Positions 19,948-47,682 of a stretch of DNA of 64,000 bases are shown here, piece after piece. The notes beneath the pieces were generated by a model that was given only the letters and a program-made list of their open reading frames with translations, was not told the origin of the DNA and did not search any database. The DNA is from an uncultured Phycisphaerales bacterium (GTDB taxonomy: Bacteria > Planctomycetota > Phycisphaerae > Tepidisphaerales > Tepidisphaeraceae): contig CAVWLP010000002.1 in the NCBI GenBank assembly GCA_963755915.1, positions 256,001-320,000 on the forward strand, written 5' to 3'. The position numbers and the translations under genes were made by a program. Positions within the stretch are counted from its first letter, which is position 1. The number at the start of each line of letters is the position of its first letter.

Positions 19948-20060
19948 GGCGCTCTTTTAAATGCGAATGCAATGCAGGGGAGGCGGGAGACAACCCATAT
20001 TTTTCCAAGGTTTTTCTCCCGCCTCCCCCGCACCCCCACCACCCTCTTTCCACTTCCCCT
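19948..20060 (+). repeat. Palindromic repeat family B, copy 2 (interrupted by IS110 at its distal end)
   Basis: GGCGCTCTTTTAAATGCGAATGCAATGCAGG and stem GGGGAGGCGGGAGA/TCTCCCGCCTCCCC; continues at 21595-21602 once the IS is removed. Confidence 0.8.
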
Positions 20061-20075
20061 GCTATGTTGGTTGTC

Positions 20076-20403
20076 AAGTGTGGGCCGCATTCGCCGCCTT
20101 TATTCTTTTGTCTTTTTAAGCTGTTGCTCGGCCTGTCAGTGTCCGCTCTGCATGGGCTGTTGCCATCATTGCGGCAACGCTCTTCCTGCTATCCGTACCT
20201 GGCGGTTTGCCAGTACACCATGGTCTAATACGTCCGTTGCAGGCGGTTCACGCTGACCCAATCTAACCGCCGAACGCTCAAGGGCGCTCATAGGGGAAAA
20301 CGGGCGCGTTACACCGTGGCTCGTCTCTTTCACTTTTATTCCAAGCTCTTTATCCGTCGTCCATCCAGGCTCCAGAAGTTCGGGGACAACCTTGGCCGGC
20401 TTT
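20076..20403 (-). ncRNA. Predicted bridge/seek RNA of IS110 element 1 (boundaries approximate)
   Basis: Target loop at about 20250-20310 and donor loop at about 20172-20240, with guides matching the reconstructed target and the element end. Confidence 0.7.
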
Positions 20404-21543
20404 TTACGCTGCCAGTTTCAAGCCCAGATCCTGCGCTTTGACCCGGCCGGTTTTGATCCGCCACAGGTCCACCGCCAGTTGCCGCGCCAAGGCCACCGCG
20501 GCTTTCTTGCGCATGGCTCTGGCTCCGGGGTTCTCGAAGACCTGCTTCCAGCGCTTCAGACGAAAATACTCCGGCTGGAACTTGGGCAGCAGCCACGCCA
20601 GTTCCACCAGCACCGTGCGCAGTCGGCGGTTGCCATGTTTGTCGATCGACAGATTCATCCGGCTCTGGCCTGAGGAGGATTCTCCAGGGCAAAGCCCGGT
20701 GTAGCTGGCGATCTGCCGGCGGTTCTGGAAGCGATTCCAGTCGACGATCTCACGATCCAGCAGCTCATAGCTGAGGTGTCCGATTCCCTTGATCCGGGCC
20801 GATTCGCGGGACTTGGCCTCCGCGCAGAGCTGGCGGGTCAGTTCATCTCGCTTCTGGTCCATCATCTCTACCATCTCCAGGTCGCGGGCAAGCTCCTTGC
20901 GGATCGGTTCGATCAGTTCTGAGCCGTAGAGTTCTTCCAGCTTTTTCAGCAGCGGCTCACACGCCAGCGGCTCCCACCATTTTCCCGGGCGATGGATGCC
21001 GAGGCTGTGCAGCAGGCTTCGTCCACGGGCGATCCAGCGCTGCCGTTCCTTTCGGTAGGTGTTGCGCTCGCGCCCCAGGCGGCGGTGGATCTCCTGGGCC
21101 ACCGTGGGGACACGCACCAGACGCAGCGCCGTCGTGTTGCCGGCGAGATGCCGGTCCAGACGCGAGAGCAGTTCGGTGGCGTCGATCTTGTCGTTGACTC
21201 TCTTGCGGCCGCGGGACAGACGTTCGGGGGCACAGACCAGGCACTCTACGCCCAGGGCGGTGGCTTCGCGGTGCAACGCGAAGCCGTAGGGACCGGCTTC
21301 GTAGACCATCACCACGCGTTTGGCCAGCGTCAGCTGCTTTTTGAGAAACTCGATGAAGACGGCCGGCGAGAGTTTTTGGGCCGGTTGAATCCCCTGATGA
21401 TCGACCATCCGTGCGAAGGTATATTGCTGGCTGTGGGTATCCACGCCGAGTTTGATCACCTCGTGCGACTGATTGGGCTTCGAGACTCTCTCCCCTCGAA
21501 CTTGGGAGGCCTTGCGGCTACCTTTAGAAGAATTGTGTTTCAT
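20404..21543 (-). CDS. IS110 DEDD recombinase/transposase
   Basis: LGVDTH, VYEAGPYG, NDKIDA, ASYTGLCPGESSSG, KHGNRRLR, AVALARQL. Confidence 0.95.
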   Translation of the reverse strand: MKHNSSKGSRKASQVRGERVSKPNQSHEVIKLGVDTHSQQYTFARMVDHQGIQPAQKLSPAVFIEFLKKQLTLAKRVVMVYEAGPYGFALHREATALGVECLVCAPERLSRGRKRVNDKIDATELLSRLDRHLAGNTTALRLVRVPTVAQEIHRRLGRERNTYRKERQRWIARGRSLLHSLGIHRPGKWWEPLACEPLLKKLEELYGSELIEPIRKELARDLEMVEMMDQKRDELTRQLCAEAKSRESARIKGIGHLSYELLDREIVDWNRFQNRRQIASYTGLCPGESSSGQSRMNLSIDKHGNRRLRTVLVELAWLLPKFQPEYFRLKRWKQVFENPGARAMRKKAAVALARQLAVDLWRIKTGRVKAQDLGLKLAA

Positions 21544-21710
21544 GGTTGTCGGGTTTAGTCGACGGTGGCTAGCCCGACAACCAACATGCCATCTAACCGT
21601 CCAAGGCAAAAGACAGAAGCCGGAGACGGTGGCGCGAAACTCAGGGGCATCTTTTTCGCGTGATTGGGGGCACACGCCTGCGCGGGGCGTTGCCGAGTCT
21701 TTTCTTAGGG

Positions 21711-21845
21711 GGACGGTTGAGAGGAAAAGGACGGGGAGTGGGGTGGGTGCGGGAGGGGCGAGGGGGAAACCCTTGGGGCGCCCTTGCGACTCCTCTCGCG
21801 TGGTTCCCCCTTGCCTCTCCTGCATTGCTTTTAGCATTTTGAATT
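21711..21845 (-). repeat. Palindromic repeat family B, copy 3 (inverted relative to copy 2)
   Basis: Reverse complement GCAATGCAGGAGAGGCAAGGGGGAACCAC...GTTTCCCCCTCGCCCCTCCCGCACCC closely matches copy 1. Confidence 0.85.
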
Positions 21846-21870
21846 TTGTCGCGATGAATTGCATGGCCGA

Positions 21871-22163
21871 CTAGACCTCCATCCCAACCACGGCCGCATC
21901 GAGAATCGCCGCGTTATACGCATCCAGCGGCACGCGCTTTTCGGGATAAAACGGCATCGCCGCCTCGCGGCTCTCCGTAAACGCGATCAGGTCCCCCTCG
22001 GCCGCGCCCACTCGTCGTAAACCACGAGTGATTCACTGCTCTTCCGCGCCTTGCCTGCGAGGCTGAAACGATCCTGCACTTCGACGAGCAGAAAACGCCC
22101 GCCGACGAGCGTTGAATAGAGGGGCTGAAGCGTGACGCGGCCAATGACCTTGCCTACGCGCAT
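21871..22163 (-). CDS. eutN: BMC vertex (EutN/CcmL) protein (apparent frameshift near 22010)
   Basis: MRVGKVIGRVTL...LVVYDE|LGAAEGDLIAFTESREAAMPF...LDAYNAAILD. Confidence 0.8.
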
Positions 22164-22868
22164 GACGCCAGCTCCTTCAGCCGATGCTGGACTTGTTCCG
22201 GAGCGGTTCGCGGCCCGCGCGAAACGCGCGAGCAGATTGCGAATCTGCGGCAGACTTTTGTACGGATATTCCAGGATCAGCACGTTGGCGCCGATGGCGG
22301 TCATCGCCTGATCGACCGATTCGAGGCAGGTGCCCACGATCGCGCGGAGGCTCGAGCAGCGGTTGGCGTAAACGATCGCCTCGGCGGCTGATTTGACGAG
22401 GAGAACGCCGCCGCCGGCCTGGGAGGATTTGATCTGCGACGCGAGGTGCTTGATGACGGCGGTGAGTTGGGTGGGCTCGCTGGTGAGATCGATGGGGGCC
22501 AGCCGCGTTTCGCGCGATTGAGCCGCCAGGGCGGCTTTGGCGGCGCCGCAGGGGCCGTCGCACCACCAGAGAATGGCGCCCTTTACCCCCTCGGCCGGTA
22601 CCCCGGGAGAGGGTTGGGGTGAGAGACCCCCTCCCCTACCCTCCCCCGGAGTACCGGGGGCGGGGGAATTAAGAGTACCAGGGGAGGGGAAATTGGGAGT
22701 ACCAGTGGAGGGTAGAAGAGAGTCGGGCCCGTAACCTACGCTGATGCGCTTGCTGCGGATCCAGTCGGCCGCCAACGGCGTGAGGCGCGCACCGTAGGGC
22801 AGCACGATCTGCCCGTCGCCCGATCCGCGGGCGTGAAGGTCCTGAAGTTGGCGGGCAGTCACGATCAT
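22155..22868 (-). CDS. BMC-associated protein: N-terminal TPLA.D motif plus RpiB/LacAB-like C-terminal domain (probable frameshift near 22215)
   Basis: ARLTPLAADWIRSKRISV; YANRCSSLRAIV...IGANVLILE; alternative-frame end RTAPEQVQHRLKELASCA*. Confidence 0.65.
22586..22712. repeat. REP-like family A cluster inside a coding region
   Basis: Inverted pair of CCCTC.CCCC.ACCCTC.CCCGGAGTACCGGG.G.GGG plus two partial GAGTACCAG.GGAGGG units. Confidence 0.85.
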
Positions 22869-23131
22869 TCCATTTCCTCATCCACGAGCCCGACGACGTA
22901 CCATCGCGCGGGGCTTTTTTCGTTGCCGACATATTCGCGTGCGCCTTTGCCGTCGCTGCTGAGCACGACGATCTGCCCGAGACCTGCGCCCAGGCGATCG
23001 ACCGCTACGAGCACATCCCCCTCGGGCTTTCGATCGGGCCCCAGCACCTGCACGAGCGGCATGCGGAGCCCGACCAGGCTCGGATGTTTCACCGTTGCCG
23101 TCGCGTGGCCGATGACGAGTCCCTGAAGCAT
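22865..23131 (-). CDS. eutN: BMC vertex (EutN/CcmL) protein
   Basis: VIGHATATVKHPSL...AVDRLGAGLGQIVVL. Confidence 0.92.
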   Translation of the reverse strand: MLQGLVIGHATATVKHPSLVGLRMPLVQVLGPDRKPEGDVLVAVDRLGAGLGQIVVLSSDGKGAREYVGNEKSPARWYVVGLVDEEME

Positions 23132-24539
23132 CTAGATCACCCTCAATGCTCGCGTCATCATCACCCGGCGATAACGCGTGAACGTGAGCGGCGTCGTGAT
23201 CCCCTCGCCGGTCGGCGTGGCGATCGAATAGCTCAGATATCCCTCACCCCCCAGTCCCAGCCCCGCCATGCTTGGGCCGTTGACGACAAACAGCGTCGTG
23301 TTCGCCTTGCGGCCAAAGCGCGTGATGGTGTCGAGGTTTTGGCTGTGGATCAGGGCAGTGTGGCGATAGCCATGCTCACTTTCGATGGCCAGTTCCATCG
23401 CCTCGTCGACATTTTTAACGCGCACGAAGGGAACGAACGGCATCATCTGCTCTTCCTGTACAAACGCGTGATCCGCACTGGTTTCGCCGACAAGAAGCTG
23501 CGTAACCGGCGGCACCGAAACCCCGGCCGCCCGCGCCAAAACCGAGGCGTCTTTGCCGACGAAATCCTTGTTCACGTGCGGGTGGCCTTCCTTGTCGGGC
23601 TTGAACGCGGACTTGGTGAGGGCGTCGATCTGCGATGAATTCAGGACGAACCCGCCGGCCATTTTCATCTGTTCGAGAAACTTGTCGAAGACGCTGTCGA
23701 CGCAGAAGACCTGTTTTTCGCCGATGCACAGAAGGTTGTTGTCGTAGGCGGCTCCTTTGACGATCGACGTCGCCGCGTTTTGAAGGCAGGCGGTTTCGTC
23801 GACGACGACCGGCGGATTTCCCGGGCCGGCAACGATCGAGCGCTTGCGCTTTCATGGCCGCTCGCGCCACGCCGGGGCCGCCGGTGATGACCAGCAGCGC
23901 GACCCCGCGATGGTTGAAAAGCTCCTCGGCGCTTTCCAGCGTCGGCGGCAGCACGCAGGTGATGAGATTGTCGATCCCGTATTTCGCGGCGATCTGCTTG
24001 TTATATTCCGTGATCGCATGAGCCGCGCAGTTGGCCCCGCTGGGATGGGCGTTGGCGACGAGCGAATTTCCCGAGGCGATCATGTTGATGGCGTTGGCCG
24101 TCAGCGTGGGAACGCTGTGCGTCACCGGCGTAACCACGCCGATGACACCGAAGGGGGCGAATTCTTCCAGGCACAGGCCGTTGGATCCGCTGGAAGCGTG
24201 GGTCTGCAAATATTCGACGCCGGGCACGAGTTCGAGGATTTGGAGCTTTTCGATCTTGTGATCGAGCCGGCCGACTTTCGTCTCGGCCAACTCCATCGCG
24301 CCCCACTCGCGGGCGTTTTGTTTGGCGATCGACTTGATCAGCTTCACGATGCCGTCGCGATCGTCCATCGAGAGCTTCACGAGCTTCTTCTGGGCCTCGC
24401 CTGCGGCGGCAACGCAGTCGTCGATTTTCGCGTAAACGCCGTGACCTCCGGCGCTGCTTGAAGATGCCGGCGCCGGCCGATCGTCGCCAAGCCGGCGCAT
24501 CACTTCGCTGACCACATCCTGGATAAGCGTTGCGTTCAT
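23132..24539 (-). CDS. CoA-acylating aldehyde dehydrogenase (EutE/PduP type) with N-terminal encapsulation peptide (apparent frameshift near 23845)
   Basis: [56 protein letters not shown]. Confidence 0.9.
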
Positions 24540-24542
24540 GGC

Positions 24543-24872
24543 TTATTTTTCCCCCGTGGCGGAGTAAAACGATTTGCCCGAATAAACCGCCGAGTCGACG
24601 ATCCCGACAATCACCGCGTCGGCCGGCATGTTTTTCGTCTGGTCGGTCATGCGGGCGCTGCTTCCCTGAACGACGAGTACAAGCTGTCCGTCGCCCACGC
24701 CGACGACGTCGATGGCGACGATGGCGCGGCCGGTGTTTCCCAGGCTCGCGGGCGTTGTCGTGTTGGGCTCATACTTCACGTTCAGCGGCTCGACGACCAT
24801 CAGCTTCTGGCCCCCCAGGGCCTTGTCTTTCTTGGTCGAAACCACGTGACCGGTAACTCTTGCGAGGAACAT
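24543..24872 (-). CDS. eutN: BMC vertex (EutN/CcmL) protein
   Basis: MFLARVTGHVVSTKK...QGSSAR...DAVIVGIVD. Confidence 0.93.
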   Translation of the reverse strand: MFLARVTGHVVSTKKDKALGGQKLMVVEPLNVKYEPNTTTPASLGNTGRAIVAIDVVGVGDGQLVLVVQGSSARMTDQTKNMPADAVIVGIVDSAVYSGKSFYSATGEK

Positions 24873-24929
24873 CGGGTTCACCTCATTGGATAGCGCTCCC
24901 CTGCGGGTCGCGGCTAAACGGGCGGATCA

Positions 24930-25199
24930 TCAGCCCATCTTGGCGACGTCGGAATGCGGACGGGCGATGACGTGCACCGAGACGATCTCGCCGACTTTTC
25001 CGCCCGCTTCCGCGCCGGCGTCGACGGCGGCGCGAACGGCGGCCACGTCGCCGCGGAGGGTGATCGCCACCAGCCCGCTGCCGACCTTGTGCTGCTCGAC
25101 GAACTCCACGTTGGCGGACTTCAGCGCCGCATCCAGCGCTTCGACGGCCGCCACGATGCCCTTGGTTTCGATCAATCCGATTGCTTCTGAGTTTGCCAT
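24930..25199 (-). CDS. BMC-H shell hexamer protein
   Basis: AIGLIETKG...DAALKSANV...[11 protein letters not shown]...HVIARPH. Confidence 0.95.
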
Positions 25200-25220
25200 G
25201 ACTGTTCTCCGAAAAAAATT

Positions 25221-26335
25221 TTAGTTGGCTGTTAAAACCGATTCCGTTTGCAATGCGACGATAAGTTCTTCGTTGGCGGGGACGATCCAGATTTCTCCGT
25301 TCGATTCGACCTTGCTGATGCGCTCTTCCTTCCCGCGCGTCTGGTTTTTCTGCGGATCGAGAACCAGGCCGGCGAAATCGAGGTCTTTGCAGATTGCCTG
25401 CCGCAGCGATGTCGCGTTTTCGCCCATTCCACCGGTGAAGGCGAGCACATCGCACCCGCCGAGGACGACGAGGAACGCCCCGATATAGTGGCGGACAGTT
25501 TCGACGAACGCGTCGATCGCCAGCTTGGCGCGGTTGTCTCCCGCGGCGGCGGTGCGCTCGATGTCGCGCATGTCCGGCGACACGCCGCTCATTCCTAACA
25601 GTCCGCCCTCTTTGCCCAGCCGGCGAAAAATCTCGTCCAGCGAAATTCCCTGCTTCAGCAGCTTCATGATCGCGAAGGTGTCGAAATCCCCGACGCGATT
25701 GTTATGCGGCAAGCCTGACTGCACGGTCATGCCGAAGCTGTTGGCGACGGATTTTCCGCTATCGATCGCGCAGACCGAGCAGCTTCCGCCGAGGTGGCAA
25801 CTGATAATCCGGCGGGCCGAGTCCCGACCCACCAGCTCTGGGACGCGCATCGAGATATATCGATGGCTGGCGCCGTGGAAGCCATAGCGGCGAATGCCCA
25901 GCTTCTCCGTCCACTCGTGGGGGATCGCGTAAATTTGGCGAGACAGCGGAATTGTCTGGTGAAACGCCGTCTCAAACGCCGCCACCTGCGGTACGTTCGG
26001 CAGCTTCTCGCGAAAGGCACGCATCGCCGCGATGTACGGCGGATTGTGCGCCGGCGCAACATCCGCAAACTGCTCCATCGTCGCCAGCACCTCATCCGTC
26101 ACGCGCACGGCCCCGCTGATCGGCCCGCCGTGTACGGCCTTGAAGCCAATGGCGTCGGGTTTATGCGGCAGCGCAGCCATGATCTCATCCAGGCAATCGC
26201 CATGGGTTTTGTGGGGACAATCCTTCTGCCCGATGCGCTCGAAACTGCCTGCGCAAGTTCCGCGCCGCTGGACGCCATGTCCAGCAACTTATACTTGAAG
26301 CTGGTGCTGCCGAGGTTGGCCACAAGAACGAACAT
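25221..26335 (-). CDS. ackA: Acetate/propionate kinase (apparent frameshift near 26250)
   Basis: NLGSTSFKY, VHGG, PAHNP, ETAFH, RRYGFHGASH, CHLGG, FTGGMGEN, ANEEL. Confidence 0.9.
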
Positions 26336-26338
26336 CGT

Positions 26339-26641
26339 TTAGAGCGCCGCGCCGCCGCCACCGGCGCCGTATCCTTCGAGCAGATCCGGATGCGGGCGCG
26401 CGATGACGTGATGCGCCACCAGCTCGCCGACTTTTCCAGCCGCTTCCGCGCCGGCGTCGACGGCGGCCTTCACGCTGCCCACGTCGCCGCGGACGATCGT
26501 CGTTACGAACGCCCCGCCGATCTGGATCGTCTTGATGATCTCCACATTGGCGGCCTTGCACATGGCGTCGGTCGCCTCGACGAGGCCGACCCACCCCTTG
26601 GTCTCAATCAATCCCAATGCCTGACTCGATTTCTCTGACAT
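26339..26641 (-). CDS. BMC-H shell hexamer protein
   Basis: ALGLIETKG...DAMCKAANV...RGDVGSVKAAV...HVIARPH. Confidence 0.95.
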   Translation of the reverse strand: MSEKSSQALGLIETKGWVGLVEATDAMCKAANVEIIKTIQIGGAFVTTIVRGDVGSVKAAVDAGAEAAGKVGELVAHHVIARPHPDLLEGYGAGGGGAAL

Positions 26642-26663
26642 GATCTGGTCCTTGTAAAAAAGA

Positions 26664-26963
26664 TTATTTCTTCGCCGCAGCGGCAGCCTTCGGCTTGGGC
26701 GTCATCCCGACGAGCTCGTCATGAGGCCGGGCGATGACGTGAACGGAAATGACCGTTCCCACGCGTCCCGCAGCTTCCGCGCCAGCGTCGATGGCCGCCT
26801 TCACCGCGGCCACGTCGCCCTTCACAAACGCGGTAACCATTCCGCTGCCGCACTTGTCCCAACCGAGCATCACGACGTTGGCGGTTTTCAACATCGCGTC
26901 GGTTCCCTCGATGAGGGAAACCAGCCCTTTGCATTCAAGAAGACCCAGTGCTTCACTTGCCAT
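26664..26963 (-). CDS. BMC-H shell hexamer protein
   Basis: ALGLLECKG...DAMLKTANV...KGDVAAVKAA...HVIARPH. Confidence 0.95.
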   Translation of the reverse strand: MASEALGLLECKGLVSLIEGTDAMLKTANVVMLGWDKCGSGMVTAFVKGDVAAVKAAIDAGAEAAGRVGTVISVHVIARPHDELVGMTPKPKAAAAAKK

Positions 26964-27007
26964 AAAAAAATCCTTTCGGTGAAATCAGTTCACCCTAGTT
27001 GAGCAGT

Positions 27008-27727
27008 TCACTTGATCAATTCCATGTTCGTTGCCGACTCCAGATCGCAGGCGTTTCCTTCATCCGTGTCGATATGCACTTCCAGGATCACCTTGGGGTG
27101 ATAGCGAACCCTCAGGTTGTGAAACGTCAGCCCGGATGGCCCGGTGATTTTCAGTTTCATTTCGTCGCCGTCTTTCACGCCGTAGAAGGCCATGTCTTCC
27201 GTGGACATATGCACGTGCCGCTGGGCACGGATGACGCCCTTGGAAAGTTGGATCGCGCCGGCGGGGCCAAGGACCGTGCACCCCGGCGTGTTTTCGTGGT
27301 TGCCGCTGATTCGCAGCGGCAGATCGATGCCCAGGTAAATGCCATCGGTGTAGCTGAGTTCGATCTGCGTGTAATCGCGGATCGGGCCCAGGATGCGGAC
27401 ATTGGGGATGATTCGCTGCCGCGGGCCGACGACGGTCACGAGCTGCTCCGAAGCAAATTCGCCCTGCTGGTAAAGATCTTTGAGCTTGGTGAGCTTCGCG
27501 CCGGCGCCGAAAAGAATTTCCAGGTTCGCCTGGCTGACGTGCATGTGCCGGGCGGAAACATTCACTACCAGCGGATGGGGCGGCCCCCCCGCGCCGGACG
27601 GAGCAGAAGCCGATTGCACCCTTTCGCCTGGCGGGTTGATCTGCCCGCGCAGCTTCTGGCGCAGCACTTCCCGGACAAGCCGCTCCACTTCCGAGCGATT
27701 AAGGACCGAACCGCCTGATGCCACCAT
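27008..27727 (-). CDS. pduL: Phosphate propanoyltransferase PduL with N-terminal encapsulation peptide
   Basis: SARHMH, VRILGP, TQIELS.TD, RHVHM, HIDTDEGNA; N-terminal helix RSEVERLVREVLRQKL; GAGGAG RBS. Confidence 0.95.
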   Translation of the reverse strand: MVASGGSVLNRSEVERLVREVLRQKLRGQINPPGERVQSASAPSGAGGPPHPLVVNVSARHMHVSQANLEILFGAGAKLTKLKDLYQQGEFASEQLVTVVGPRQRIIPNVRILGPIRDYTQIELSYTDGIYLGIDLPLRISGNHENTPGCTVLGPAGAIQLSKGVIRAQRHVHMSTEDMAFYGVKDGDEMKLKITGPSGLTFHNLRVRYHPKVILEVHIDTDEGNACDLESATNMELIK

Positions 27728-27732
27728 CTGAA

Positions 27733-34848: not shown

Positions 34849-36340
34849 TTAATCCCGTTCGGCACGCAGGCTTCATCGGAGCATTCCAAAGCTGTGGAGG
34901 ACGCGAAACAATTGAAGCTTAGATACTTTTACTTTCCCCTGCTGCACGCCGGCGTCCGCAAGAGCGCAGCATCAACCGCGAGGTCTCCGCGGCGACGGAT
35001 TCCCCTTCAGTTTACTCCCAGTTTTTTCAAGGCCTCCGCTCTTGCCCTCAGCTTAATCCCGGTGTTATCCGGCTTGTTCAGGAATCGAAGCACGTCCTGT
35101 TCCTCGGCCAGCCCCAGCAGATACCAGCCGATCATGTTCCGCATCGCCTTGTTCGGCTTCCTGCCGCTGATCAGCTGAATCAGCACGCAGACGATCAGCG
35201 CGCAGTGGATTTGGATGTCGATCCCCTCCTGGCGTTGGCTCAGCAGGTGACGCATGCCCAGCAGTTGCTTGAAGATCCGGAAGAACAACTCAACGGTGTA
35301 GCGGTACAGATAAATCAGGGCGATCAATTCCGCCGGCAGGTCCAGCAGGTTCGTGTACAGGATGATCAGGTCCGTCGGCTTGTTGCCGCTGCGCGTGCGG
35401 CGCGGATGGGGTTTCACCTGCACTTCCACCCGTCGCACCACCCTATCCGCCGCCGTCTCCAGGCCGTCGAGTTTCACCAGCGCGTCTCGCACCACGCCGC
35501 CGTCCAATGCTTCCTGTGAAAGCAATCGTTCTTCAAACAGCTCAAACACCGAGTTTTCCGCGGCCCGCATCACAAAGGAGCTTTGCGCCGCGGCGATGTC
35601 CGCAAAGAGGCTCCGGTCGGCGTAGCCGCCGTCTCCTACATAGCACCGTCCTGCTTCCAGGCTGCGCCGCAGGACGTTGTTTTCACGGTTGGCCCCCGCG
35701 TTGCGAGCGCCAGTGCGGTCGAGGCGATGGACTTTGAACGTCTCCAGATCGAATTGAACGTGCAAACGCCAGCCATAGACCGCTTTCCCGTCCCGGGAGG
35801 TGTTGTAGCGCGCATCGATGCCGCAAGCGGATTTGGCCAGCCGACTCAGCGCCGTCAGCACCGTCCCGTCGACCAGCGTGATCGCCTGCCCAAAGTCCGC
35901 AAGACGCGGATCGGGCGCCTGGGGCAGTTCCCCCGCCAATTCCTCAATCAGCGGCGTCAAACGCCCCGGCTCGAACACCCGAACCGATTCAGAGAAACTG
36001 CCCACGGAAAAACGCTTAATTCCCAGCGCCTTGGCCACCTTGGGCAGTTCAGCAACCTCCTGAAGATCCCGCAGGGATTGGATCAGCGGATTCCAGGTGT
36101 AAAGCAAAACCAGCTTGCAATAATCGTCGAAGTGAAGCTGGCGGTTCCCGGCTCGATCCCGCTCACAGCCCACATCCCGCAGCGTGGGCAGCAGCGCGAA
36201 GACGCGCCGCAGATGTCCGAGGCACAGGATCTCTTTTTCCTTCAGTCTTGCCTGCACGTCCGGCAGCATGCCATAAAAAGATCAAAGGCGCAATCTCAAT
36301 ATCTTGCTGCTTGCGCGAACCCCGTGCCGAACGGGATTAA
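34849..36340 (-). mobile_element. IS4 family element
   Basis: Perfect 18-bp IR TTAATCCCGTTCGGCACG; direct repeat CGGAATG at 34842-34848 and 36341-36347. Confidence 0.92.
35007..36269 (-). CDS. IS4 family DDE transposase
   Basis: VDGT, DGGY, YLYRYTVELFFRIFKQ (YREK motif). Confidence 0.93.
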   Translation of the reverse strand: MLPDVQARLKEKEILCLGHLRRVFALLPTLRDVGCERDRAGNRQLHFDDYCKLVLLYTWNPLIQSLRDLQEVAELPKVAKALGIKRFSVGSFSESVRVFEPGRLTPLIEELAGELPQAPDPRLADFGQAITLVDGTVLTALSRLAKSACGIDARYNTSRDGKAVYGWRLHVQFDLETFKVHRLDRTGARNAGANRENNVLRRSLEAGRCYVGDGGYADRSLFADIAAAQSSFVMRAAENSVFELFEERLLSQEALDGGVVRDALVKLDGLETAADRVVRRVEVQVKPHPRRTRSGNKPTDLIILYTNLLDLPAELIALIYLYRYTVELFFRIFKQLLGMRHLLSQRQEGIDIQIHCALIVCVLIQLISGRKPNKAMRNMIGWYLLGLAEEQDVLRFLNKPDNTGIKLRARAEALKKLGVN

Positions 36341-39203: not shown

Positions 39204-39204
39204 A

Positions 39205-40049: not shown

Positions 40050-40089
40050 CTCTCACCCCTGCCCTCTCCCGGAGTACCGGGAGAGGGGG
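40050..40089 (+). repeat. REP-like family A copy
   Basis: CTCTCACCCCTGCCCTCTCCCGGAGTACCGGGAGAGGGG. Confidence 0.85.
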
Positions 40090-40139
40090 AGAAGGGGGAA
40101 AATGCGCGGCAAAAGGAGGCGGTTGTTGAGATTGAGAGG

Positions 40140-41123
40140 TTGAGCCATCGGTATGGGGATCGGGCGGCGCTGAGCGATCTTTCGCTTCAGGTGTTTCGGG
40201 GGGAGATATTTGGATTTTTGGGGCCGAATGGGAGCGGGAAGACGACGCTGTTTCGGATTCTCTCTACGCTGATTCCGGCGGAGCCGGGGAAGGTGAAGAT
40301 TCTGGGGTATGGGTTGCCGGGGGAGCGCGATTCGGTGCGACGGCATATCGGGGTGGTGTTTCAGTCGCCTAGTCTCGATAAGCAGTTGTCGGCGGAAGAG
40401 AATCTTCGGCAGCAGGGGAGGCTTTATGGGTTGTATGGGAAGGAATTGACGGGGCGAATCGATCGGCTGCTGGAGCGGGTGAATCTGCTGGATCGAAAGA
40501 GGGAACGCGTGGATGGGTTTTCGGGGGGGATGCGGAGGCGGGTGGAGATCGCCAAGGGGCTGTTGCATGGGCCGAAGATTTTGCTGCTGGATGAGCCGAG
40601 TACCGGGCTGGATCCGGCGGCGCGGATCGACCTTTGGCGATTGCTTACCGAGATTCAGCGGAATGAGGGGGTGACGGTTTTGCTGACGACGCATTTGATG
40701 GATGAGGGGGACCGGTGCTCGCGGCTGGCGATCCTGGACCGGGGGAAGCTGGCGGCGTGCGATACGCCAATGGCGATGAAGGAGAAGATCGGGGGGGATG
40801 TGATCAGTCTGTCTACGCGGGAACCAGCGAGCGTGGCGAGGACGATTCGGGAGCGGTTTGGGTTGGAGACGGAGCCGGTGGAGAATGTGGTGAGGCTGGA
40901 GCGGCCGCGCGGGCATGAGTTTGTGCCGCAGCTCATCGAGGCGATGCCGGGGCTGATCGATTCGGTGTCGGTGGGGAAGCCGACGCTGGAGGATGTGTTT
41001 ATCCGGGTGACGGGGCGGTTTTTTCGGGATGATGAGCCTCAAGGCCGGGAGGGTGGGTCACGGGGGAGTGGCTCGCCGCGGGGTGGGTCAGGGGGGAATG
41101 GGTCATCGGAGAATGGGCGGTGA
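40140..41123 (+). CDS. ABC-2 type transporter ATP-binding protein (start uncertain)
   Basis: GPNGSGKTT, FSGGMRRR, LLDEP, TTH, PTLEDVF. Confidence 0.9.
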   Translation: MSHRYGDRAALSDLSLQVFRGEIFGFLGPNGSGKTTLFRILSTLIPAEPGKVKILGYGLPGERDSVRRHIGVVFQSPSLDKQLSAEENLRQQGRLYGLYGKELTGRIDRLLERVNLLDRKRERVDGFSGGMRRRVEIAKGLLHGPKILLLDEPSTGLDPAARIDLWRLLTEIQRNEGVTVLLTTHLMDEGDRCSRLAILDRGKLAACDTPMAMKEKIGGDVISLSTREPASVARTIRERFGLETEPVENVVRLERPRGHEFVPQLIEAMPGLIDSVSVGKPTLEDVFIRVTGRFFRDDEPQGREGGSRGSGSPRGGSGGNGSSENGR

Positions 41124-41451
41124 GGGCGCGGCGGGCGATTTTGACGCTGAGGTTTTGGCCGCCGATCTCCAGCATGCCGTCTTCGCTGAGGGTGACGGCG
41201 CCGTGGAGGGAGTAGAAGACTTGCTTTCCCTTCCGGCGATTGGCGATCATGTTGTTGATTCGAAGCAGCCCCAGATGATGGCTTACCGTCGGTTGAGGGA
41301 GCTTCAATTCATCGCAAATGGATGTTACGTTTCGCTCCCCCTTGGCGAGGGAGAGAAGGATGTTTACGCGTGTTTTGTCGGAGAGGAGGCGGAAGAGGAA
41401 GACGAGACGATCGAGATCCTGGTCCAACGCCGAGACGTCCAGCAAAGACAT
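40999..41451 (-). CDS. ArsR/SmtB regulator with His-repeat tail
   Basis: FRLLSDKTR..IL, QPTVSHHLGLLR, RRKGKQVFYSL. Confidence 0.88.
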   Translation of the reverse strand: MSLLDVSALDQDLDRLVFLFRLLSDKTRVNILLSLAKGERNVTSICDELKLPQPTVSHHLGLLRINNMIANRRKGKQVFYSLHGAVTLSEDGMLEIGGQNLSVKIARRALTAHSPMTHSPLTHPAASHSPVTHPPGLEAHHPEKTAPSPG

Positions 41452-41588
41452 ACAGACTCCTGCATTCGTTCTTGGGCATTCATGGAGGAGCTCGTGGTGA
41501 AGCTCATGGCGGTTGGAGAGATTATATTAACCTAAATTTGTCCTGAGGGAAGAGCAGCATATTTTGTTTCGACAAGGCGAGAGAACCA

Positions 41589-43178
41589 ATGCATTTTCAA
41601 TACTTAGGGCGGATTATTTGCGGGATGTTAATCATGGTGTTTGCAGCAGGGACAGTCGGGGCGGCGACGGGCGGGGCGGCGGGGGTGCCGCAGTGGGGGA
41701 TATTCGAATTGGCGCTGAAGGGTCCGGCGGAGGGGAATCCATTTGTTGATGTGAAGCTGGCCGGGAAGTTTAGCAGCGGGGGGCAAAGCCTGACCGTGGA
41801 CGGGTTTTATGATGGGGATGGTATCTACCGGATTCGATTTATGCCGACGGTGCAGGGGCATTGGGAATATGTCACCAGCAGCAATGGCAAGGGGCTGGAT
41901 GGGGTGAGCGGGTCGTTTGATTGTTCGGCGCCGGAGGCGGGGAACCATGGGCCGGTGCGGGTGGCGTATACGTATCACTTTGCCTATGCGGATGGGATGC
42001 CGTTCGTGCAGATCGGAACGACGGCTTATGGGTGGGCAAATGAGCCGGAGGATGTGGAGGAGCGAACGCTCCAGTCATTGCGGGCTTCGCCGTTTAACAA
42101 GGTGAGGATGATGCTTTTGCCGTCGAAGAATTCGCCGGTGGGGTATCCGTATAAGCGGGATTCATCCGGGAAGTGGGATCAGGATCGGTTCAACCCAGAG
42201 TTTTTTCAACATTTTGAGAAACGGATCGGGGAGCTTGGAGACCAGGGCGTTGAGGCGGATGTGATCCTTTTTAATCCGTACAAGAAGGGGGAGATGCAGT
42301 GGTTTGATGAGCTCGATGATGCGGCGGATGAACGGTATATCCGGTACGCGGTCGCGCGGCTGGGGGCGTATCACAATGTCTGGTGGTCGCTGGCAAATGA
42401 GTATGGGCAGGTGAAAAACAAAACCGATGCGGATTGGGATCAATTCTTTCAGTTGGTGCAGGCGTGCGATCCGTATGGGCATATGAGGTCGATTCACAAC
42501 GCGGCCAGGTTTTACGACGCGAATAAGCCGTGGGTGACGCACGCTTCGGTTCAGAATGGGTCGGCGGTGGCGGATTTTGGGAGGGCGGTGCTTTATCGGG
42601 AGCTGGTGCGCAAGCCGATCGTTTATGATGAGGTTTGTTATGAGGGGAATATCGATCGGCGCTGGGGGAGGCTTACGGGACAGGAGATGGTGAAGCGGTT
42701 TTGGCTGGGGACGATTGCGGGGACGTATGTGGGACATGGGGAAACTTTGTCGGCGCCGGAGGGGACTTCCTGGACGGGGAGCGGGGGAAGGTTGATGGGG
42801 CAGAGCCCGGCGCGGTTGGCGTTTTTGCGGAAGGTGCTGGAGGCGGGTCCGAAGGAGGGGATTGAGCCGATGGATGAGTATTTCGAAACGCACATTGGGG
42901 GGAAGGCGGGGGAATATTATCTGGTTTATTTCGGGGAGGAGTCGCCGGCGGCGTGGAAGTTTGCGCTGCCGCGCGATCCGCCGGAGAAGAATGCGCTGGA
43001 GGAGGGGATGAAATTTCGCATCGACGTTTTGGACACCTGGAACATGACGGTGACGCCGGTGGAGGGAACATTTACGACCGGGAAGCTGGATGTGGCGACT
43101 TTTCGGGATGTGAATGGGGGAAGCGTTGCGCTGCCGGGAAAGCCGTATATCGCGCTGCGGATTGAGCGGGTGAAGTGA
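41589..43178 (+). CDS. Secreted DUF5060/DUF4038(apiosidase-like)/DUF5605 glycoside hydrolase
   Basis: Signal peptide; GFYDGDG.YRIRFMP, GTTAY, WWSLANEY, DEVCYEG, GHGET. Confidence 0.8.
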   Translation: MHFQYLGRIICGMLIMVFAAGTVGAATGGAAGVPQWGIFELALKGPAEGNPFVDVKLAGKFSSGGQSLTVDGFYDGDGIYRIRFMPTVQGHWEYVTSSNGKGLDGVSGSFDCSAPEAGNHGPVRVAYTYHFAYADGMPFVQIGTTAYGWANEPEDVEERTLQSLRASPFNKVRMMLLPSKNSPVGYPYKRDSSGKWDQDRFNPEFFQHFEKRIGELGDQGVEADVILFNPYKKGEMQWFDELDDAADERYIRYAVARLGAYHNVWWSLANEYGQVKNKTDADWDQFFQLVQACDPYGHMRSIHNAARFYDANKPWVTHASVQNGSAVADFGRAVLYRELVRKPIVYDEVCYEGNIDRRWGRLTGQEMVKRFWLGTIAGTYVGHGETLSAPEGTSWTGSGGRLMGQSPARLAFLRKVLEAGPKEGIEPMDEYFETHIGGKAGEYYLVYFGEESPAAWKFALPRDPPEKNALEEGMKFRIDVLDTWNMTVTPVEGTFTTGKLDVATFRDVNGGSVALPGKPYIALRIERVK

Positions 43179-44935
43179 TGGGAAGATTGCTCATCCTGTT
43201 GGTGGCGATGGTGGTTGCGGTGCCGGCGTTGGCGGAGGATCCGATCCGGATCGAGGGGTCGGAGCAGCAGAAGCTTACGGGTAAATTTCCGGACGGAGGA
43301 TTGCCGCCGGTGGTGGGGGTGGAGAATTTTGAGGTGTTCCGGGCCTGCCGCGATTTGGCTTATGCGACGGATGGGAAGGGGTGGACGTATAACCATCACG
43401 TCGACTTGGCGTGCTGGAAGGGGCGGCTTTACGTGGCCTGGGAGAACGGGCAGAAGGATGAGGATACGTATCCGGCGCATGAGGTGATTTCGTCTTCGGG
43501 GGATGGGGTTTCGTGGTCGGTGCCGCGGGAGATTTTTCCGGTGGGATTGTCGAACACGCTACGGATGGATTTTTACCTGGCGAAGAATGGAAGGATGCTG
43601 CTGATCGCGGCGCGGCGGGTGGTGTTTGAGAGGATCACGGATGTGACGGAAGGGGGCGTGGTGGTGAGGGAAATGCTGGGGGATGGATCGATGGGGCCGA
43701 TTTCCACGCTGATCAAATCGCCGGAGGCTTCCAAGGGGCCGGCTTACTTTGGGGAATCGACGGATGCGGGGTTTCGCAAGGCGTGCGAGCAGTTGCTGGC
43801 GGACCATACGTTTCTTGAAGAGCAGGATGGAGGAGCGCTGCTGGGGGATGGGCGGATGAAGCCGTACGAAGATGCGGCATCGGATTTCGGGAAGGCGTTT
43901 TGTTTTTTTCATCGGCCGGATGGGACGCTGGTGGGGATCTGCAAGAAGGGGTACGTGGTGACTTCCAAAGATGAGGGGATCACCTGGGACGGGCCGACGC
44001 AGCTTCAGGATTTTCAAGCGGGGACGGCGAAGGAATGGATCCAGCAGATTCCCGGCGGGAAATATACCAGAGGAGAATATATTTGGGCGCACGATCCGTT
44101 TCCGGCCGAGCGATTTCCTCTGGTGATGATGACCGGAACGGACGGCGTGGTTTTTCGAAACATGCGCGTCGTCCACGGCGAGGTTCCGCGGCAGCGATAT
44201 GAGGGGCTGAACAAGAATATCGGGCCGCAATACGTGCGCGGGCTTTCGGTGTGGAACGATGATGGCTCGCGAAGTGATAACGCGATCTGGCTTGGGTATA
44301 GCGTGAACAAGGAGGACATCTGGGTGAGCCGGATTCCGCTGCCGGTGCGGGCGGATGGGGCGGGGGCGGTGGATGATGAGTTTGGAAAATTCTCTGCCGG
44401 GCGGGTTGTTCCGGGATGGAATACCTATTGCCCGAAATGGGGGGATGTTTCGGTTCAGCAGGGCAGTTTGTCGCTGGAGGATCATGAGCCGTATGACTAC
44501 GCGCGGGCGGATCGGGTTTTTGCGGATAGTCCGGCGGTAAATGTGGAATTTGAGGTTAGCGCGGCACGCGTGGGGGATGGCGATTTGGAAATTGAGTTGT
44601 GGAATCGGTTTGGGGATGTGCGGCCGGTGCGCGTGGTGCTGAATCCCGATGGGAACATTTCGGCGGCGGGTAGAAATGTTGGCCGCTACTCGGTGGGCAA
44701 AGGGGTGAAATTCAAGATTGAGGCGAACGGGCCGGGTGGGGTGTTTTCGGTTTCGATCGAAGGGGGAGCGGCGATTTCGTTGAATGCGGAGGGGAAGACG
44801 GATTCGTTTGATCGGATCGTGTTTCGCACGGGTGGGTATCGGTTGCTGCCGGTGCGGGGGGATGAGGTTCCAGGGGGGACGGACAAGCCGGTGGAAACTT
44901 CGGCGTATCTGATTGGATATCTGCGATTGAAATAA
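43178..44935 (+). CDS. Secreted BNR/sialidase-like glycosidase
   Basis: Signal peptide; Asp-box-like SGDGVSWS and SKDEGITW; WTYNHH, YSVNKEDIW. Confidence 0.65.
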   Translation: MGRLLILLVAMVVAVPALAEDPIRIEGSEQQKLTGKFPDGGLPPVVGVENFEVFRACRDLAYATDGKGWTYNHHVDLACWKGRLYVAWENGQKDEDTYPAHEVISSSGDGVSWSVPREIFPVGLSNTLRMDFYLAKNGRMLLIAARRVVFERITDVTEGGVVVREMLGDGSMGPISTLIKSPEASKGPAYFGESTDAGFRKACEQLLADHTFLEEQDGGALLGDGRMKPYEDAASDFGKAFCFFHRPDGTLVGICKKGYVVTSKDEGITWDGPTQLQDFQAGTAKEWIQQIPGGKYTRGEYIWAHDPFPAERFPLVMMTGTDGVVFRNMRVVHGEVPRQRYEGLNKNIGPQYVRGLSVWNDDGSRSDNAIWLGYSVNKEDIWVSRIPLPVRADGAGAVDDEFGKFSAGRVVPGWNTYCPKWGDVSVQQGSLSLEDHEPYDYARADRVFADSPAVNVEFEVSAARVGDGDLEIELWNRFGDVRPVRVVLNPDGNISAAGRNVGRYSVGKGVKFKIEANGPGGVFSVSIEGGAAISLNAEGKTDSFDRIVFRTGGYRLLPVRGDEVPGGTDKPVETSAYLIGYLRLK

Positions 44936-44947
44936 GCCGATTGACAA

Positions 44948-45151
44948 TCAGTCGCGAAACGCTGCCCTCAAAAAGAGCAACCCGAATACCACCGCGAGAA
45001 CAATCCAAAACGCATCATAGGCCAGATTCGCGGGGTCGTATTTGTGGGAGGGAATCACGGCGAAATCCCCGGCCCATAAAAAGAAGAGGCAAATCCAGAA
45101 CAGAAGTGCCCAGAAAAGACGCCTGACGATTGGACTTCTGCTCATGCGCAT
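44948..45151 (-). CDS. Small two-TM membrane protein
   Basis: Two hydrophobic helices in 67 aa. Confidence 0.5.
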   Translation of the reverse strand: MRMSRSPIVRRLFWALLFWICLFFLWAGDFAVIPSHKYDPANLAYDAFWIVLAVVFGLLFLRAAFRD

Positions 45152-45229
45152 GGGTGCGTCTTATTCTACGCAAAATTTGACCGCAGAGATTACCGGGGCA
45201 ATCGCGTGCAGTCCGAAAAAATGCCGAAG

Positions 45230-45306
45230 ACCCCCTCCCCTACTCCCGACAAGTCGGGACTTCGCTTCGCTCAGCCTCCAATCCCCTGGAGTACCGGGGG
45301 CGGGGG
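45230..45306 (+). repeat. REP-like family A copy with an internal insertion
   Basis: CCCCCTCCCCTACT...CCCCTGGAGTACCGGGGGCGGGGG split by a CCCGACAAGTCGGG hairpin. Confidence 0.65.
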
Positions 45307-45312
45307 TAACTT

Positions 45313-46050
45313 CTAGAGATTGCGCTGGCCGAGGAAATGGTTGGCGAGAGAGGCGAGACCGGTGACGAGGTGGGCATGTTCATCGGCACTGAAGTTGTCG
45401 ATGGAGGCCATGCCGTAGCCTTCGATTTCGGGCTGGATCGACGACACTGCATCGGCTTCTCGCCGGGCGTCCTGGAGTTCCTGCAATTCGATATTGCGGG
45501 CTTTGTCGAGGCCTCCGCCGCGGATGAATTCGATGATCTGGCGGATTTCCTCGCGGTCGAGCCATATACCGTGGCGGCCGCAGACGTTGATGATGATGCC
45601 GGAGCGGCCGGCGTAGTTCATGCGGTTCATGATGTTGCCGCATTGCGGGCATTTGAGATAGCGGACGCTGGGATCGAAGGCAACGGGCGGCGGGACGCGT
45701 AAACCGGTCGCGGCCTGCTGGGCCTCGGCTGTGGAACAAATGTGCTCGAAGTTAGAGACGTCGATCCACAGGCCGCCGCAGCGCATGCACTCTTCCAGCG
45801 GCGTGGTCGCGACCTCGACGGCGGTGAGCTTTTCATTGCAGCGCGGGCAGGAGTGAGTGGTTGCCTGGCCTTGGGCGATGTTCTGAGCGACGGCGCCGCA
45901 GTGGGGGCAGAATTTTGAGCCGGCGAACATCATGCCCAGGCATTTCGGGCAGGCGACGGTTTGGAGCAGGGCGTGGCAGTATTGGCACTGAGTGGAATCG
46001 GAGGAGACGGCGGAGCCGCAGTTGGGGCAGTTGAGGGTGCCGGCTTGCAT
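45313..46050 (-). CDS. Multi zinc-ribbon protein (double zinc ribbon plus zf-TFIIB-like domains)
   Basis: Repeated CxxC pairs; CGGLWID, HGIWLDREE. Confidence 0.85.
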   Translation of the reverse strand: MQAGTLNCPNCGSAVSSDSTQCQYCHALLQTVACPKCLGMMFAGSKFCPHCGAVAQNIAQGQATTHSCPRCNEKLTAVEVATTPLEECMRCGGLWIDVSNFEHICSTAEAQQAATGLRVPPPVAFDPSVRYLKCPQCGNIMNRMNYAGRSGIIINVCGRHGIWLDREEIRQIIEFIRGGGLDKARNIELQELQDARREADAVSSIQPEIEGYGMASIDNFSADEHAHLVTGLASLANHFLGQRNL

Positions 46051-46105
46051 GGGTGCGAGTATAACCGCGGAGGTGGGTTCTTTAAATTTCTCTTGTCTTT
46101 GTCTT

Positions 46106-46154
46106 TCTTGGCGCTCTTGGCGTCTTGGCGGTTACAGGATTTTTAACCGCCAAG
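46106..46154. repeat. Left part of the CTTGGCG-heptamer hairpin repeat interrupted by IS110 element 2
   Basis: TCTTGGCGCTCTTGGCGTCTTGGCGGTTA..TAACCGCCAAG, completed by ACGCCAAGAGCCAAGA at 47640-47655. Confidence 0.85.
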
Positions 46155-46266
46155 AAACTATGAAGCCGAGCCTTTCTCGGGACGTGAACGGGGTCAAAAT
46201 GCCCCAAGTATGAACGAGCGTACCGCGTAGGTCGCTCAAACGTCTTTTTTGAGAAAGGACTCGGCA

Positions 46267-47310
46267 ATGCGAATTCTCGCTTTGGACCTGGGAAAGAACA
46301 AGAGCGTTTTTGTGGATTATGTCACCGGCGGTGGAGAAAGAACGTTCGGCAAGATCGGCACCAATGCCCACGAGGTGCAAAAACTACTCGAGCGGGTGCG
46401 TCCGGATCGACTGGTCATCGAGGCCGGTCCGGCGGCAGGATGGGTTTGTGATCTGGCGGAGCGGAACAATGTTCCCGTCCAGGTGGCCAATGGCAACGAT
46501 GAACGCTGGCGCTGGAAGACGGTGAAGGAGAAGAGTGATCGTAAAGACGCGCTGAAGATGGCGGCGATGTCGGAGATGGATTCGCTGCCGACGGTGCACG
46601 TGCCCAAGGCATCGGTTCGGCAGTGGCGTTCATTGATTGAATACAGACACGGCCTGGTGGATCGCCGCACGGCGCTCAAGAACTCGATCCGATCAATCTA
46701 CGAGCGGCAGGGTTTGTATTTGCCCTCGGCGACCAAGGCGTGGACGAAAGCGCGACTGGAGGAAATGAGGAAGGAAGCAGCGGCCGCATCGGCGGAAGAT
46801 CTGTGGCTGTTTCAGATCGGTTGTGAGGTGGCGCAACTGGAGCACCTGGAGAAGCAGATCGAAACTGTCGAAAGCAAGCTTCAGGAGTTGGGCCAGGCCA
46901 ACAAAGCGGTGAAACGATTGCAGGAGGTGCCCGGCGTTGGTCCGCGGCTGAGCGAGGCGGTGGCGGTGATCATTGATGATCCCAGGCGATTCAAGAATGC
47001 ACGTCAGGTGGGATGTTACGTGGGTCTGACGCCGCGGCGCTGGCAGAGCGGCGACAGCGATCGCCAGGGGCGGATCAGCAAGGCAGGCAACGCGCTGCTG
47101 CGGGAGTTGCTGGTGGAGGTGGCGTGGCTGGGGGTTCATCGCAATACGTGGATGAAGGACGTGTACGAGAGGGTTCTACGTGACAGCGAGAAGCGCAAGA
47201 AGATCGCGATTGTTGCGGTAGCCAGGAGATTACTGGTGAAGCTGTGGGCGATGCTGCGGGACGGAACCCGATGGAGAGAACCCCAGCGATCGCTGACGGC
47301 GGCCACTTGA
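46267..47310 (+). CDS. IS110 DEDD recombinase/transposase
   Basis: ALDLGK, VIEAG, KSDRKDA, VPGVGP, YVGLTPRRWQSG, ISKAGN, AVARRL. Confidence 0.96.
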   Translation: MRILALDLGKNKSVFVDYVTGGGERTFGKIGTNAHEVQKLLERVRPDRLVIEAGPAAGWVCDLAERNNVPVQVANGNDERWRWKTVKEKSDRKDALKMAAMSEMDSLPTVHVPKASVRQWRSLIEYRHGLVDRRTALKNSIRSIYERQGLYLPSATKAWTKARLEEMRKEAAAASAEDLWLFQIGCEVAQLEHLEKQIETVESKLQELGQANKAVKRLQEVPGVGPRLSEAVAVIIDDPRRFKNARQVGCYVGLTPRRWQSGDSDRQGRISKAGNALLRELLVEVAWLGVHRNTWMKDVYERVLRDSEKRKKIAIVAVARRLLVKLWAMLRDGTRWREPQRSLTAAT

Positions 47311-47620
47311 AAATCGAAAAGGCGATGACTGTCCCGACAAGTCGGTACAGGCGATGGAGTATCTCCCCTCCGGAAGACACCGTGTCAGAAAGCCGTTGTC
47401 TTCTGTGCAGGGGATTGAGTAGAGTTGAAGTGAAGTGGAATTGACGCGTTCGTGCAGGTTGAATGAGCAAGGCCAGACCCCGGTTGGCGTCTTAAGCTTC
47501 AAAGCTTGCCGCTAAGAATAGGGCTGGCCATTTGTACAGTTGAATAGGCCCGCCGCCAGGCGAGAGCACTGAATAGAAGGCTCACCCAATCGACCGCATG
47601 AGCGATCAACGCCCCTTGAC
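47311..47620 (+). ncRNA. Predicted bridge/seek RNA of IS110 element 2 (boundaries approximate)
   Basis: Target loop 47471-47529 with guides TTGGCGTCTT and CCGCTAAGA; donor-like ATAGAAG at 47573-47579. Confidence 0.72.
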
Positions 47621-47682
47621 AAGGCTCGGCTCATAGAAGACGCCAAGAGCCAAGAAAATGCAGGAGGGTGAGATTTAACGCG

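Follow-up and report, generated by a model that had tools for sequence, protein, structure and literature searches.

The stretch of DNA analysed here (G000:C2:256001-320000; 64,000 nucleotides (nt), hereafter the window) comes from an uncultured soil bacterium and contains two insertion sequences (ISs) of the IS110 family, element 1 and element 2, both of which are very probably autonomous members of the IS1111 group, each with its own recombinase and its own guide RNA. All six genome copies of element 1 lie in one family of host repeats (family A) and all nine copies of element 2 in another (family B), and in both elements the crossover core is AG. A preliminary description of the window had proposed such a division of the host's repeats and had read the two elements as a naturally orthogonal pair of AG-core recombinases whose expression is switched on by circularisation; the division holds for every copy, and the remainder is weighed below.

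Two IS1111-type elements, their ends and their host repeats

Pfam searches of the window returned two IS110-family transposase genes, which are listed here with the elements that carry them.

20059-21594, minus strand: element 1, including both AG core copies, delimited by empty sites (1534 bp with one core)
20404-21543, minus strand: element 1 recombinase gene, 379 amino acids (aa), with PF02371 and NF033542
46153-47639, plus strand: element 2, including both AG core copies, delimited by empty sites (1485 bp with one core)
46267-47310, plus strand: element 2 recombinase gene, 347 aa, with PF01548, PF02371 and NF033542

A longer open reading frame of 486 aa at element 1 was discarded as a spurious upstream extension into the flank, the conserved start giving 379 aa. 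Both full-length proteins exceed the 140-bit cutoff of NF033542 ('IS110 family RNA-guided transposase'), with 163.8 bits for element 1 (spanning residues 33-363) and 216.6 bits for element 2, and their catalytic motifs align (GVDTH/ALDLG, YEAGP/IEAGP and NDKIDA/KSDRKDA). By NF033542 and these motifs, both recombinases combine the RuvC-like DEDD domain with PF02371, as expected of the IS110 family, and the alignment also places a GLxPxxxxSG motif in each (GLCPGESSSG and GLTPRRWQSG), matching the C-terminal GL-P----S/TG motif of the IS1111 group (PMC11187229). The two recombinases are nevertheless as divergent as previously described, with 26% identity over 339 aligned columns, and no DNA similarity between the elements was detected at an expectation value (E) below 1e-5. 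A comparison of the element 1 protein with solved structures gave no sequence match.

Read in its own orientation, element 1 has the ends AG-ATGGC-ATGTTGGTTGTC ... GACAACCAACAT-AGC-AG, and element 2 has the ends AG-AAACT-ATGAAGCCGAGCC ... GGCTCGGCTCAT-AGA-AG. The subterminal inverted repeats (IRs) differ between the elements, as had been noted: those of element 1 form a perfect 12-nt pair (20064-20075 against 21576-21587), and those of element 2 match over 14/15 nt with one indel. Such IRs are usually 11-13 bp long in the IS1111 group (PMC11187229).

21593-21594, minus strand: element 1 left AG core copy (copy junctions, empty sites)
21588-21592, minus strand: element 1 left extension ATGGC, 7 nt with the core, the same in relatives L043 and L044
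21576-21587, minus strand: element 1 left subterminal IR, 12 nt, 100% complementary pair
20064-20075, minus strand: element 1 right subterminal IR, overlapped by TTGACA
20061-20063, minus strand: element 1 right extension AGC (copy junctions, empty sites)
20059-20060, minus strand: element 1 right AG core copy (copy junctions, empty sites)
46153-46159, plus strand: element 2 left AG core copy and extension AAACT (copy junctions)
46160-46174, plus strand: element 2 left subterminal IR (inverted-repeat pair)
47621-47634, plus strand: element 2 right subterminal IR (inverted-repeat pair, copy junctions)
47635-47637, plus strand: element 2 right extension AGA (copy junctions)
47638-47639, plus strand: element 2 right AG core copy (copy junctions)

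The element 1 copies are identical throughout (6/6, with no variable column among 1536), and the nine element 2 copies vary in 2 of 1487 columns; we take this near-identity as a sign that both elements have probably been active recently. Every copy of element 1 is inserted as ..GGACGGTT-AG-ATGGC-[IR ... IR]-AGC-AG-GGGAAG.. (6/6), and every copy of element 2 as ..AACCGCCA-AG-AAACT-[IR ... IR]-AGA-AG-ACGCCAAGAG.. (9/9). The arrangement of AG plus 5 nt on the left and 3 nt plus AG on the right was thus correctly recognised in the preliminary description. Counting one AG at the left end, however, these are extensions of 7 nt and 3 nt outside the subterminal IRs, which is the published rule for IS1111 elements (PMC11187229); the shared geometry is a family trait and therefore not special to this pair, as the phrase 'identical end geometry' had suggested. 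The non-coding sequence is also distributed as in IS1111 elements, where a long non-coding region follows the gene (PMC11187229): it measures 340 nt (element 1) and 324 nt (element 2) 3' of the gene, and about 50 and 113 nt upstream of it. Because of the 7/3-nt extensions and this long downstream region, both elements are, on their sequences, members of the IS1111 group of the IS110 family and not of the IS110 group.

The crossover core is AG in both elements, because host repeats without an element run through one single AG. For element 1, the empty site ..GGACGGTT-AG-GGGAAG.. has 10 exact matches in the genome as a 15-mer, 14 with at most one mismatch and 32 with at most two; for element 2, the empty site ..CCGCCA-AG-ACGCCAAG.. 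has 21 exact matches as a 16-mer, 31 with at most one mismatch and 54 with at most two. None of the 10 inspected copies of the element 1 host repeat carried the element, and GGACG(G/T)TT-AG-G is preserved in 9. Comparison of occupied with empty sites reveals no target duplication beyond AG in either element, although element 2, taken alone, allows the duplicated stretch to be read as up to 4 nt (AAGA). The 10 and 21 exact empty sites thus bear out the shared AG core, a core that is also known experimentally for ISPpu9 (PMC12288879, in the part of that report used here).

Family A is a G-rich repeat of about 110 nt, and family B a long palindromic repeat of CGCCAAG units, one arm of which is the target of element 2. 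Within 4 mismatches of a 30-mer, 14 family A bodies were found, of which 4 are occupied, 8 have an empty target and 2 are of other kinds; the remaining two copies of element 1 adjoin more diverged bodies. In all there are 14-19 family A bodies against 6 copies of element 1, and about 80 central hairpins of family B against 9 copies of element 2. Because family B is palindromic, each repeat offers the target once per strand, and in the family B repeat of the window the arm opposite element 2 is still empty. Both targets adjoin hairpins; a stem-loop beside the target has been proposed as an additional specificity determinant for ISPpu10 (10.64898/2026.03.19.712850, in the portion consulted). A second, diverged family A copy (21713-21831) has the opposite orientation to the occupied one and lies some 120 nt away from element 1, on the side of its left end; its target is degenerate and unoccupied.

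Guide regions and their covariation with targets

Guides were sought as sense-strand exact matches anchored on the core and compared with 2000 dinucleotide-preserving shuffles, with the guide strands defined as in the consulted part of PMC11208160. An unanchored pairing search that allowed G:U pairs had too high a background to inform and was replaced by this anchored test.

20064-20403, minus strand: element 1 3' non-coding region, presumed seek/bridge RNA template, 340 nt
20292-20298, minus strand: element 1 guide TTCCCCT, complement of the top strand, core + right target (9 of 2000 shuffles)
20261-20269, minus strand: element 1 guide CGGTTAG(AT), identical to left target + core (33 of 2000 shuffles)
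20186-20192, minus strand: element 1 donor-like guide ATAGCAG, equal to right end + core (52 of 2000 shuffles)
47311-47634, plus strand: element 2 3' non-coding region, 324 nt
47484-47493, plus strand: element 2 guide TTGGCGTCT(T), complement of the top strand, core + right target (3 of 2000 shuffles)
47508-47518, plus strand: element 2 guide GCCGCTAAG(AA), equal to left target + core with one C-to-U (wobble) difference
47573-47579, plus strand: element 2 donor-like guide ATAGAAG, equal to right end + core (43 of 2000 shuffles)

CGGTTAG(AT) of element 1 could base-pair with the target's bottom strand. The counts of 52 and 43 for the donor-like guides refer to equal or longer anchored matches. 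The ATAG-N-AG segments reported earlier are present in both RNA regions (ATAGCAG at 20192-20186 on the minus strand, ATAGAAG at 47573-47579 on the plus strand), and the target guides and RNA scaffolds differ between the elements, also as reported. When each RNA region was tested against the target and donor of the other element, no match came near significance: the lowest count was 164 of 2000, and all others were at least 333 of 2000. From the 5' end, both elements have the top-strand match, a hairpin and the bottom-strand match, and this order of the two matches is that of IS1111 seekRNAs and the opposite of that in IS110-type RNAs (PMC11187229). In the predicted folds a single internal loop, with a closing stem and a hairpin cap, holds one target guide on each side; in element 1 this is a symmetric loop of 10 x 10 nt.

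The guide assignments are further supported by relatives in other genomes, where guides change together with targets. The scaffold of element 2 is present in two genomes of the same genus, G001 (90% aa identity) and G011 (72%). In all four copies in G001, the ends and AG are unchanged, and the site is ..GACGCCA-AG-AGCGCC.., shifted onward by one 8-nt CGCCAAG unit within the same palindromic repeat; here the top-strand guide TTGGCGCTCT replaces TTGGCGTCTT of element 2. The 14 copies in G011 all lie at CAGGCC-AG-CC(A/C) (CCA in 13, CCC in 1), with the top-strand guide GTTGGCT, and with AGGCCAG(A) in place of GCCGCTAAG, corresponding to the left target CAGGCC. Two more distant relatives, in G007 (34% identity to the element 2 protein) and G034 (36%), have the same geometry with TG at both junctions, and there the donor-like segment reads ATAGATG, the top-strand guide ends in CA and the bottom-strand guide in TG; in G034, element-free copies of the upstream repeat display the empty site. 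One further locus (L010 in G037, 46% identity to the element 2 protein) was left uncounted, its left end being truncated and its right flank misfitting the donor-like segment.

For element 1, a search of the same class found matches in 2 of 401 genomes at E <=1e-40 (its own genome and G014), and an all-species scan added L043 and L044, loci in metagenome-assembled genomes (MAGs) of Phycisphaeraceae and Tepidisphaeraceae. Their identity to the element 1 protein is 64-65% by tblastn, and 68% by alignment for L043; L044 was used as DNA only (ends, RNA region and junction) and stood outside the protein alignment. Both retain ATGGC, AGC, AG and ATAGCAG and are inserted at ..CAA-AG-GGGTCGGG.., with the guides CCGACCCC(T) and CAAAG. 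When the RNA regions of element 1 and L043/L044 are aligned, the two variable patches are exactly the guide positions. A fourth lineage, in G014 (locus L004), has the same pattern of guides and targets, and the conclusion is independent of it. Across related genomes the guide variants form a natural series of retargeting, with the element 2 scaffold aimed at three targets and that of element 1 at two.

In all eight lineages examined, which amount to only about three independent groups, the bottom-strand guide continues beyond the core and takes in the first 1-2 nt of the left extension (AG-AU, AG-AA or UG-AA), 2 nt in the case of elements 1 and 2. This overrun is possibly equivalent to the handshake bases of IS621.

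Circle junctions, leaders and the weighing of readings

By analogy with the family, the guide RNA would be made and bound, a circle formed, and the joined ends used as a promoter. Each element encodes a DEDD/RuvC-type recombinase and would encode, downstream of its gene, a seek/bridge RNA with one internal loop carrying the two target guides and a second region copying the right end and core, which would act as the left-donor guide. The RNA-protein complex would join the excised circle (right end, AG, left end) to a host repeat matching around AG, and strand exchange at AG would leave one AG on either side of the element and duplicate nothing else. The joined ends would then provide a perfect -35 box in the right end and a weak -10 box spanning the core and left end.

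20072-20077, minus strand: TTGACA of element 1, overlapping the right IR by 4 nt
47616-47621, plus strand: TTGACA of element 2, overlapping the right IR by 1 nt
21543-21583, minus strand: element 1 leader hairpin (-20.5 kcal/mol, z -3.17)
46165-46265, plus strand: element 2 leader structure (-51.9 kcal/mol, z -5.27, 0 of 200 shuffles as stable)

TTGACA is present at the right IR of both elements, as the preliminary description had it, though it overlaps the IR and does not abut it. Scripted end joining reproduced the junctions computed there: TTGACA, then 17 nt, then CATGTT in element 1 or GAAACT in element 2. The same spacing to a hexamer with A2 and T6 recurs in 8/8 lineages examined, and a promoter scan found no sigma-70-like promoter inside either integrated element. 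Junction promoters are documented for several family members, yet not for ISPpu9 (PMC12288879, as far as the part used here extends), and the -10 boxes are weak; for these reasons junction-driven expression of both elements is something that we infer.

The leaders suggest a further layer of control. In element 1, the inner left IR is predicted to pair with an 11-nt stretch whose last base is the A of the start codon, and in element 2, the left IR region with a purine-rich stretch just 5' of the start codon. In the TG-core relatives (L018 and L019), the repeat differs and, judged by eye, the partner arm differs to match. Such pairing between the left IR and the start region could block the translation of read-through transcripts. 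With its start within the 5' arm, a transcript from the junction promoter of element 1 would evade the block, whereas that of element 2 probably would not. If this is true, at least element 1 would be translatable only from transcripts starting inside the element, at the circle-junction promoter. The whole combination, an active and mutually orthogonal IS1111-type pair with a retargeted guide series and a previously unreported control through the left IR and start region, is put forward tentatively and is rather unlikely to hold in all its parts.

That both elements are autonomous IS1111-type systems with guide RNAs has to be set against several results. Even at E of 10, the element 1 protein showed no PF01548, and Rfam 15 gave no match at gathering score in the window, with only chance-level matches to the two RNA regions at E up to 10. 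The bottom-strand guide of element 2 needs a G:U wobble and has an exact anchored match of only 2+2 nt, a poor score that follows from its C-to-U difference from the target; L043 and L044 are single copies with a short bottom-strand match (3+2 nt). Anchored matching did not find the right-donor guide (the complement of core and left end), the matches extending no more than 1 and 2 nt past the core, which leaves the donor side of the two-loop bridge-RNA picture documented only by half. Both -10 hexamers agree with TATAAT at 3/6 positions and would fail the criteria of the scan tool, the -35 boxes being perfect in both. Of 20 sequencing runs, all of them assembled contigs, four were compared with element 2; their public contigs break at its ends with no joint leading back into it, an uninformative outcome given that these are assembled contigs. 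Two 4-nt candidates for the right-donor guide picked out by eye, CCAU in element 1 and AGUU in element 2, were too short to claim.

A rival reading is that the protein alone chooses the target, with the matches in the non-coding regions arising by chance. The matches are indeed short (7-9 nt), and the single-match shuffle frequencies are 0.15-2.6%; yet both elements have two guides in the expected order within one loop, guide changes track targets in five other lineages while ends and scaffold stay constant, and the mechanism is experimentally established in the family (PMC11187229, PMC11208160), so that this explanation is very improbable. Even harder to credit is the idea that the conserved flanks are parts of longer elements and that neither host target repeats nor site specificity exist: flanks are conserved for 15-60 nt beside every copy, but they are joined without an element at 10 and 21 exact places, and at more with mismatches, and the family B hairpins (about 80) and family A bodies (14-19) outnumber the 9 and 6 element copies. 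Autonomous, RNA-guided IS1111 elements remain the preferred reading.

How far the two elements form a co-adapted, strictly orthogonal pair, with no cross-use of RNA or ends and silence until circularisation creates the promoter, is a separate matter. Their proteins are only 26% identical, the lack of DNA similarity and the differing IRs and RNA scaffolds set them apart, and no cross-family insertion occurs among 15 copies, while the conserved spacing of TTGACA and the lack of a detected internal promoter agree with silence before circularisation. On the other side, transposases with just 46% identity can have an IS1111 seekRNA fold in common (PMC11187229), and co-adaptation is not needed to partition the repeats, for which different guides suffice; ISPpu9 forms minicircles without a junction promoter (PMC12288879), which makes such promoters less than universal in the family, the -10 boxes match at only half their positions, and conservation of the -35 box in element 1 is confounded because 4/6 bases of TTGACA belong to the IR. 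We regard strict orthogonality with silence as conceivable but somewhat doubtful. A little less likely still is the view that the shared AG core is a constraint of the recombinase lineage and not a coincidence. AG is found in 3/3 lineages of the element 1 clade and in 3 lineages of the element 2 clade, its second base G is retained even in the TG-core relatives, it complements CT, the core for which IS621 has a strong preference (PMC11208160), and it is shared with ISPpu9 (PMC12288879). AG is not invariant in the clade, however, for the TG cores of G007 and G034 come with the same geometry, the insertion points TG*AA, GG*CG and AA*CG given for other IS1111 members in the consulted part of PMC13604230 imply other cores, and two lineages would agree by chance about once in 16.

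Neighbouring features and relation to known systems

The non-coding region of element 2 contains one feature with relatives outside the family.

47350-47405, plus strand: hairpin module, common to IS21-family elements, absent in G011

The hairpin, about 58 nt in length, directly follows the stop codon and shares 84-93% identity with a stretch close to the 3' ends of two IS21-family elements (istA/istB), L001 (about 2832-2889) and L002, which have about 35 and 9 copies in the genome. Because it is kept in G001 and missing in G011, it looks like an optional module of unrelated insertion sequences. A third, more distant IS110-family element (G000:C2:1052291-1053881, about 1.6 kb) has 4 copies, all outside the window, 22% identity to the element 2 protein and no obvious subterminal repeats. 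Element 1 itself lies in an intergenic repeat within a gene cluster (18953-27727) that resembles a bacterial microcompartment operon, with a class II aldolase, an EutN/CcmL-like protein, an aldehyde dehydrogenase, acetate kinase and a PduL-type phosphotransacylase. A DDE_Tnp_1 transposase gene is found between the two elements (35007-36269, minus strand), and the cumulative GC skew of the window has its minimum near 26-28 kb.

The two elements cleanly illustrate a mechanism that was already described in 2024; the mechanism is not new, and its current understanding is unchanged by them. They contribute two well-delimited IS1111-type systems from a little-studied soil lineage, with cores verified by empty sites and guide assignments that natural covariation supports. 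The relative in G001 is especially informative, since a change in the top-strand guide alone shifts insertion by one 8-nt unit in the same repeat. The pair may also help to clarify donor reading by IS1111 RNAs, a point less well documented than in IS621, and such pairs are raw material for compact recombinases without cross-talk.

Among the closest known systems are ISEc11, ISPa11 and ISKpn4/ISPst6 (Siddiquee et al. 2024, PMC11187229), which have the same subterminal IRs, 7/3-nt extensions and downstream non-coding region. The IS1111 seekRNA elements of that study also share the guide order and the site- and orientation-specific insertion, ISPa11 likewise targets repetitive extragenic palindromic (REP) sequences, and the retargeting between relatives resembles that of ISEc11 and ISXne4. 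In contrast, the proteins studied here are distant from those elements, with no named relative identified; the element 1 protein is longer (379 aa against 330-350 aa for the family) and has no detectable match to PF01548; ISEc11, ISPa11 and ISKpn4 have other targets and other cores than AG; and the host is an uncultured soil bacterium, the nearest relatives of element 1 being in Phycisphaeraceae and Tepidisphaeraceae MAGs. IS621 (Durrant et al. 2024, PMC11208160), the mechanistic model and as presented in the part of that report used here, shares the -35 box in the right end and REP-type targets; its RNA lies upstream of the gene with the guides in reverse order, it has IRs of just 2-3 bp and a CT core. 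For each of the RNAs described here, only one donor guide was identified. As a co-resident pair, the elements have a precedent in ISPpu9 and ISPpu10 of Pseudomonas putida KT2440, also two IS110-family elements, both in REP sequences. According to the part of PMC12288879 on which we draw, those are IS110-group elements that use the same REP site with different cores, AG for ISPpu9 (from sequenced minicircle junctions) and CT for ISPpu10, whereas elements 1 and 2 use different repeat families with the same core.

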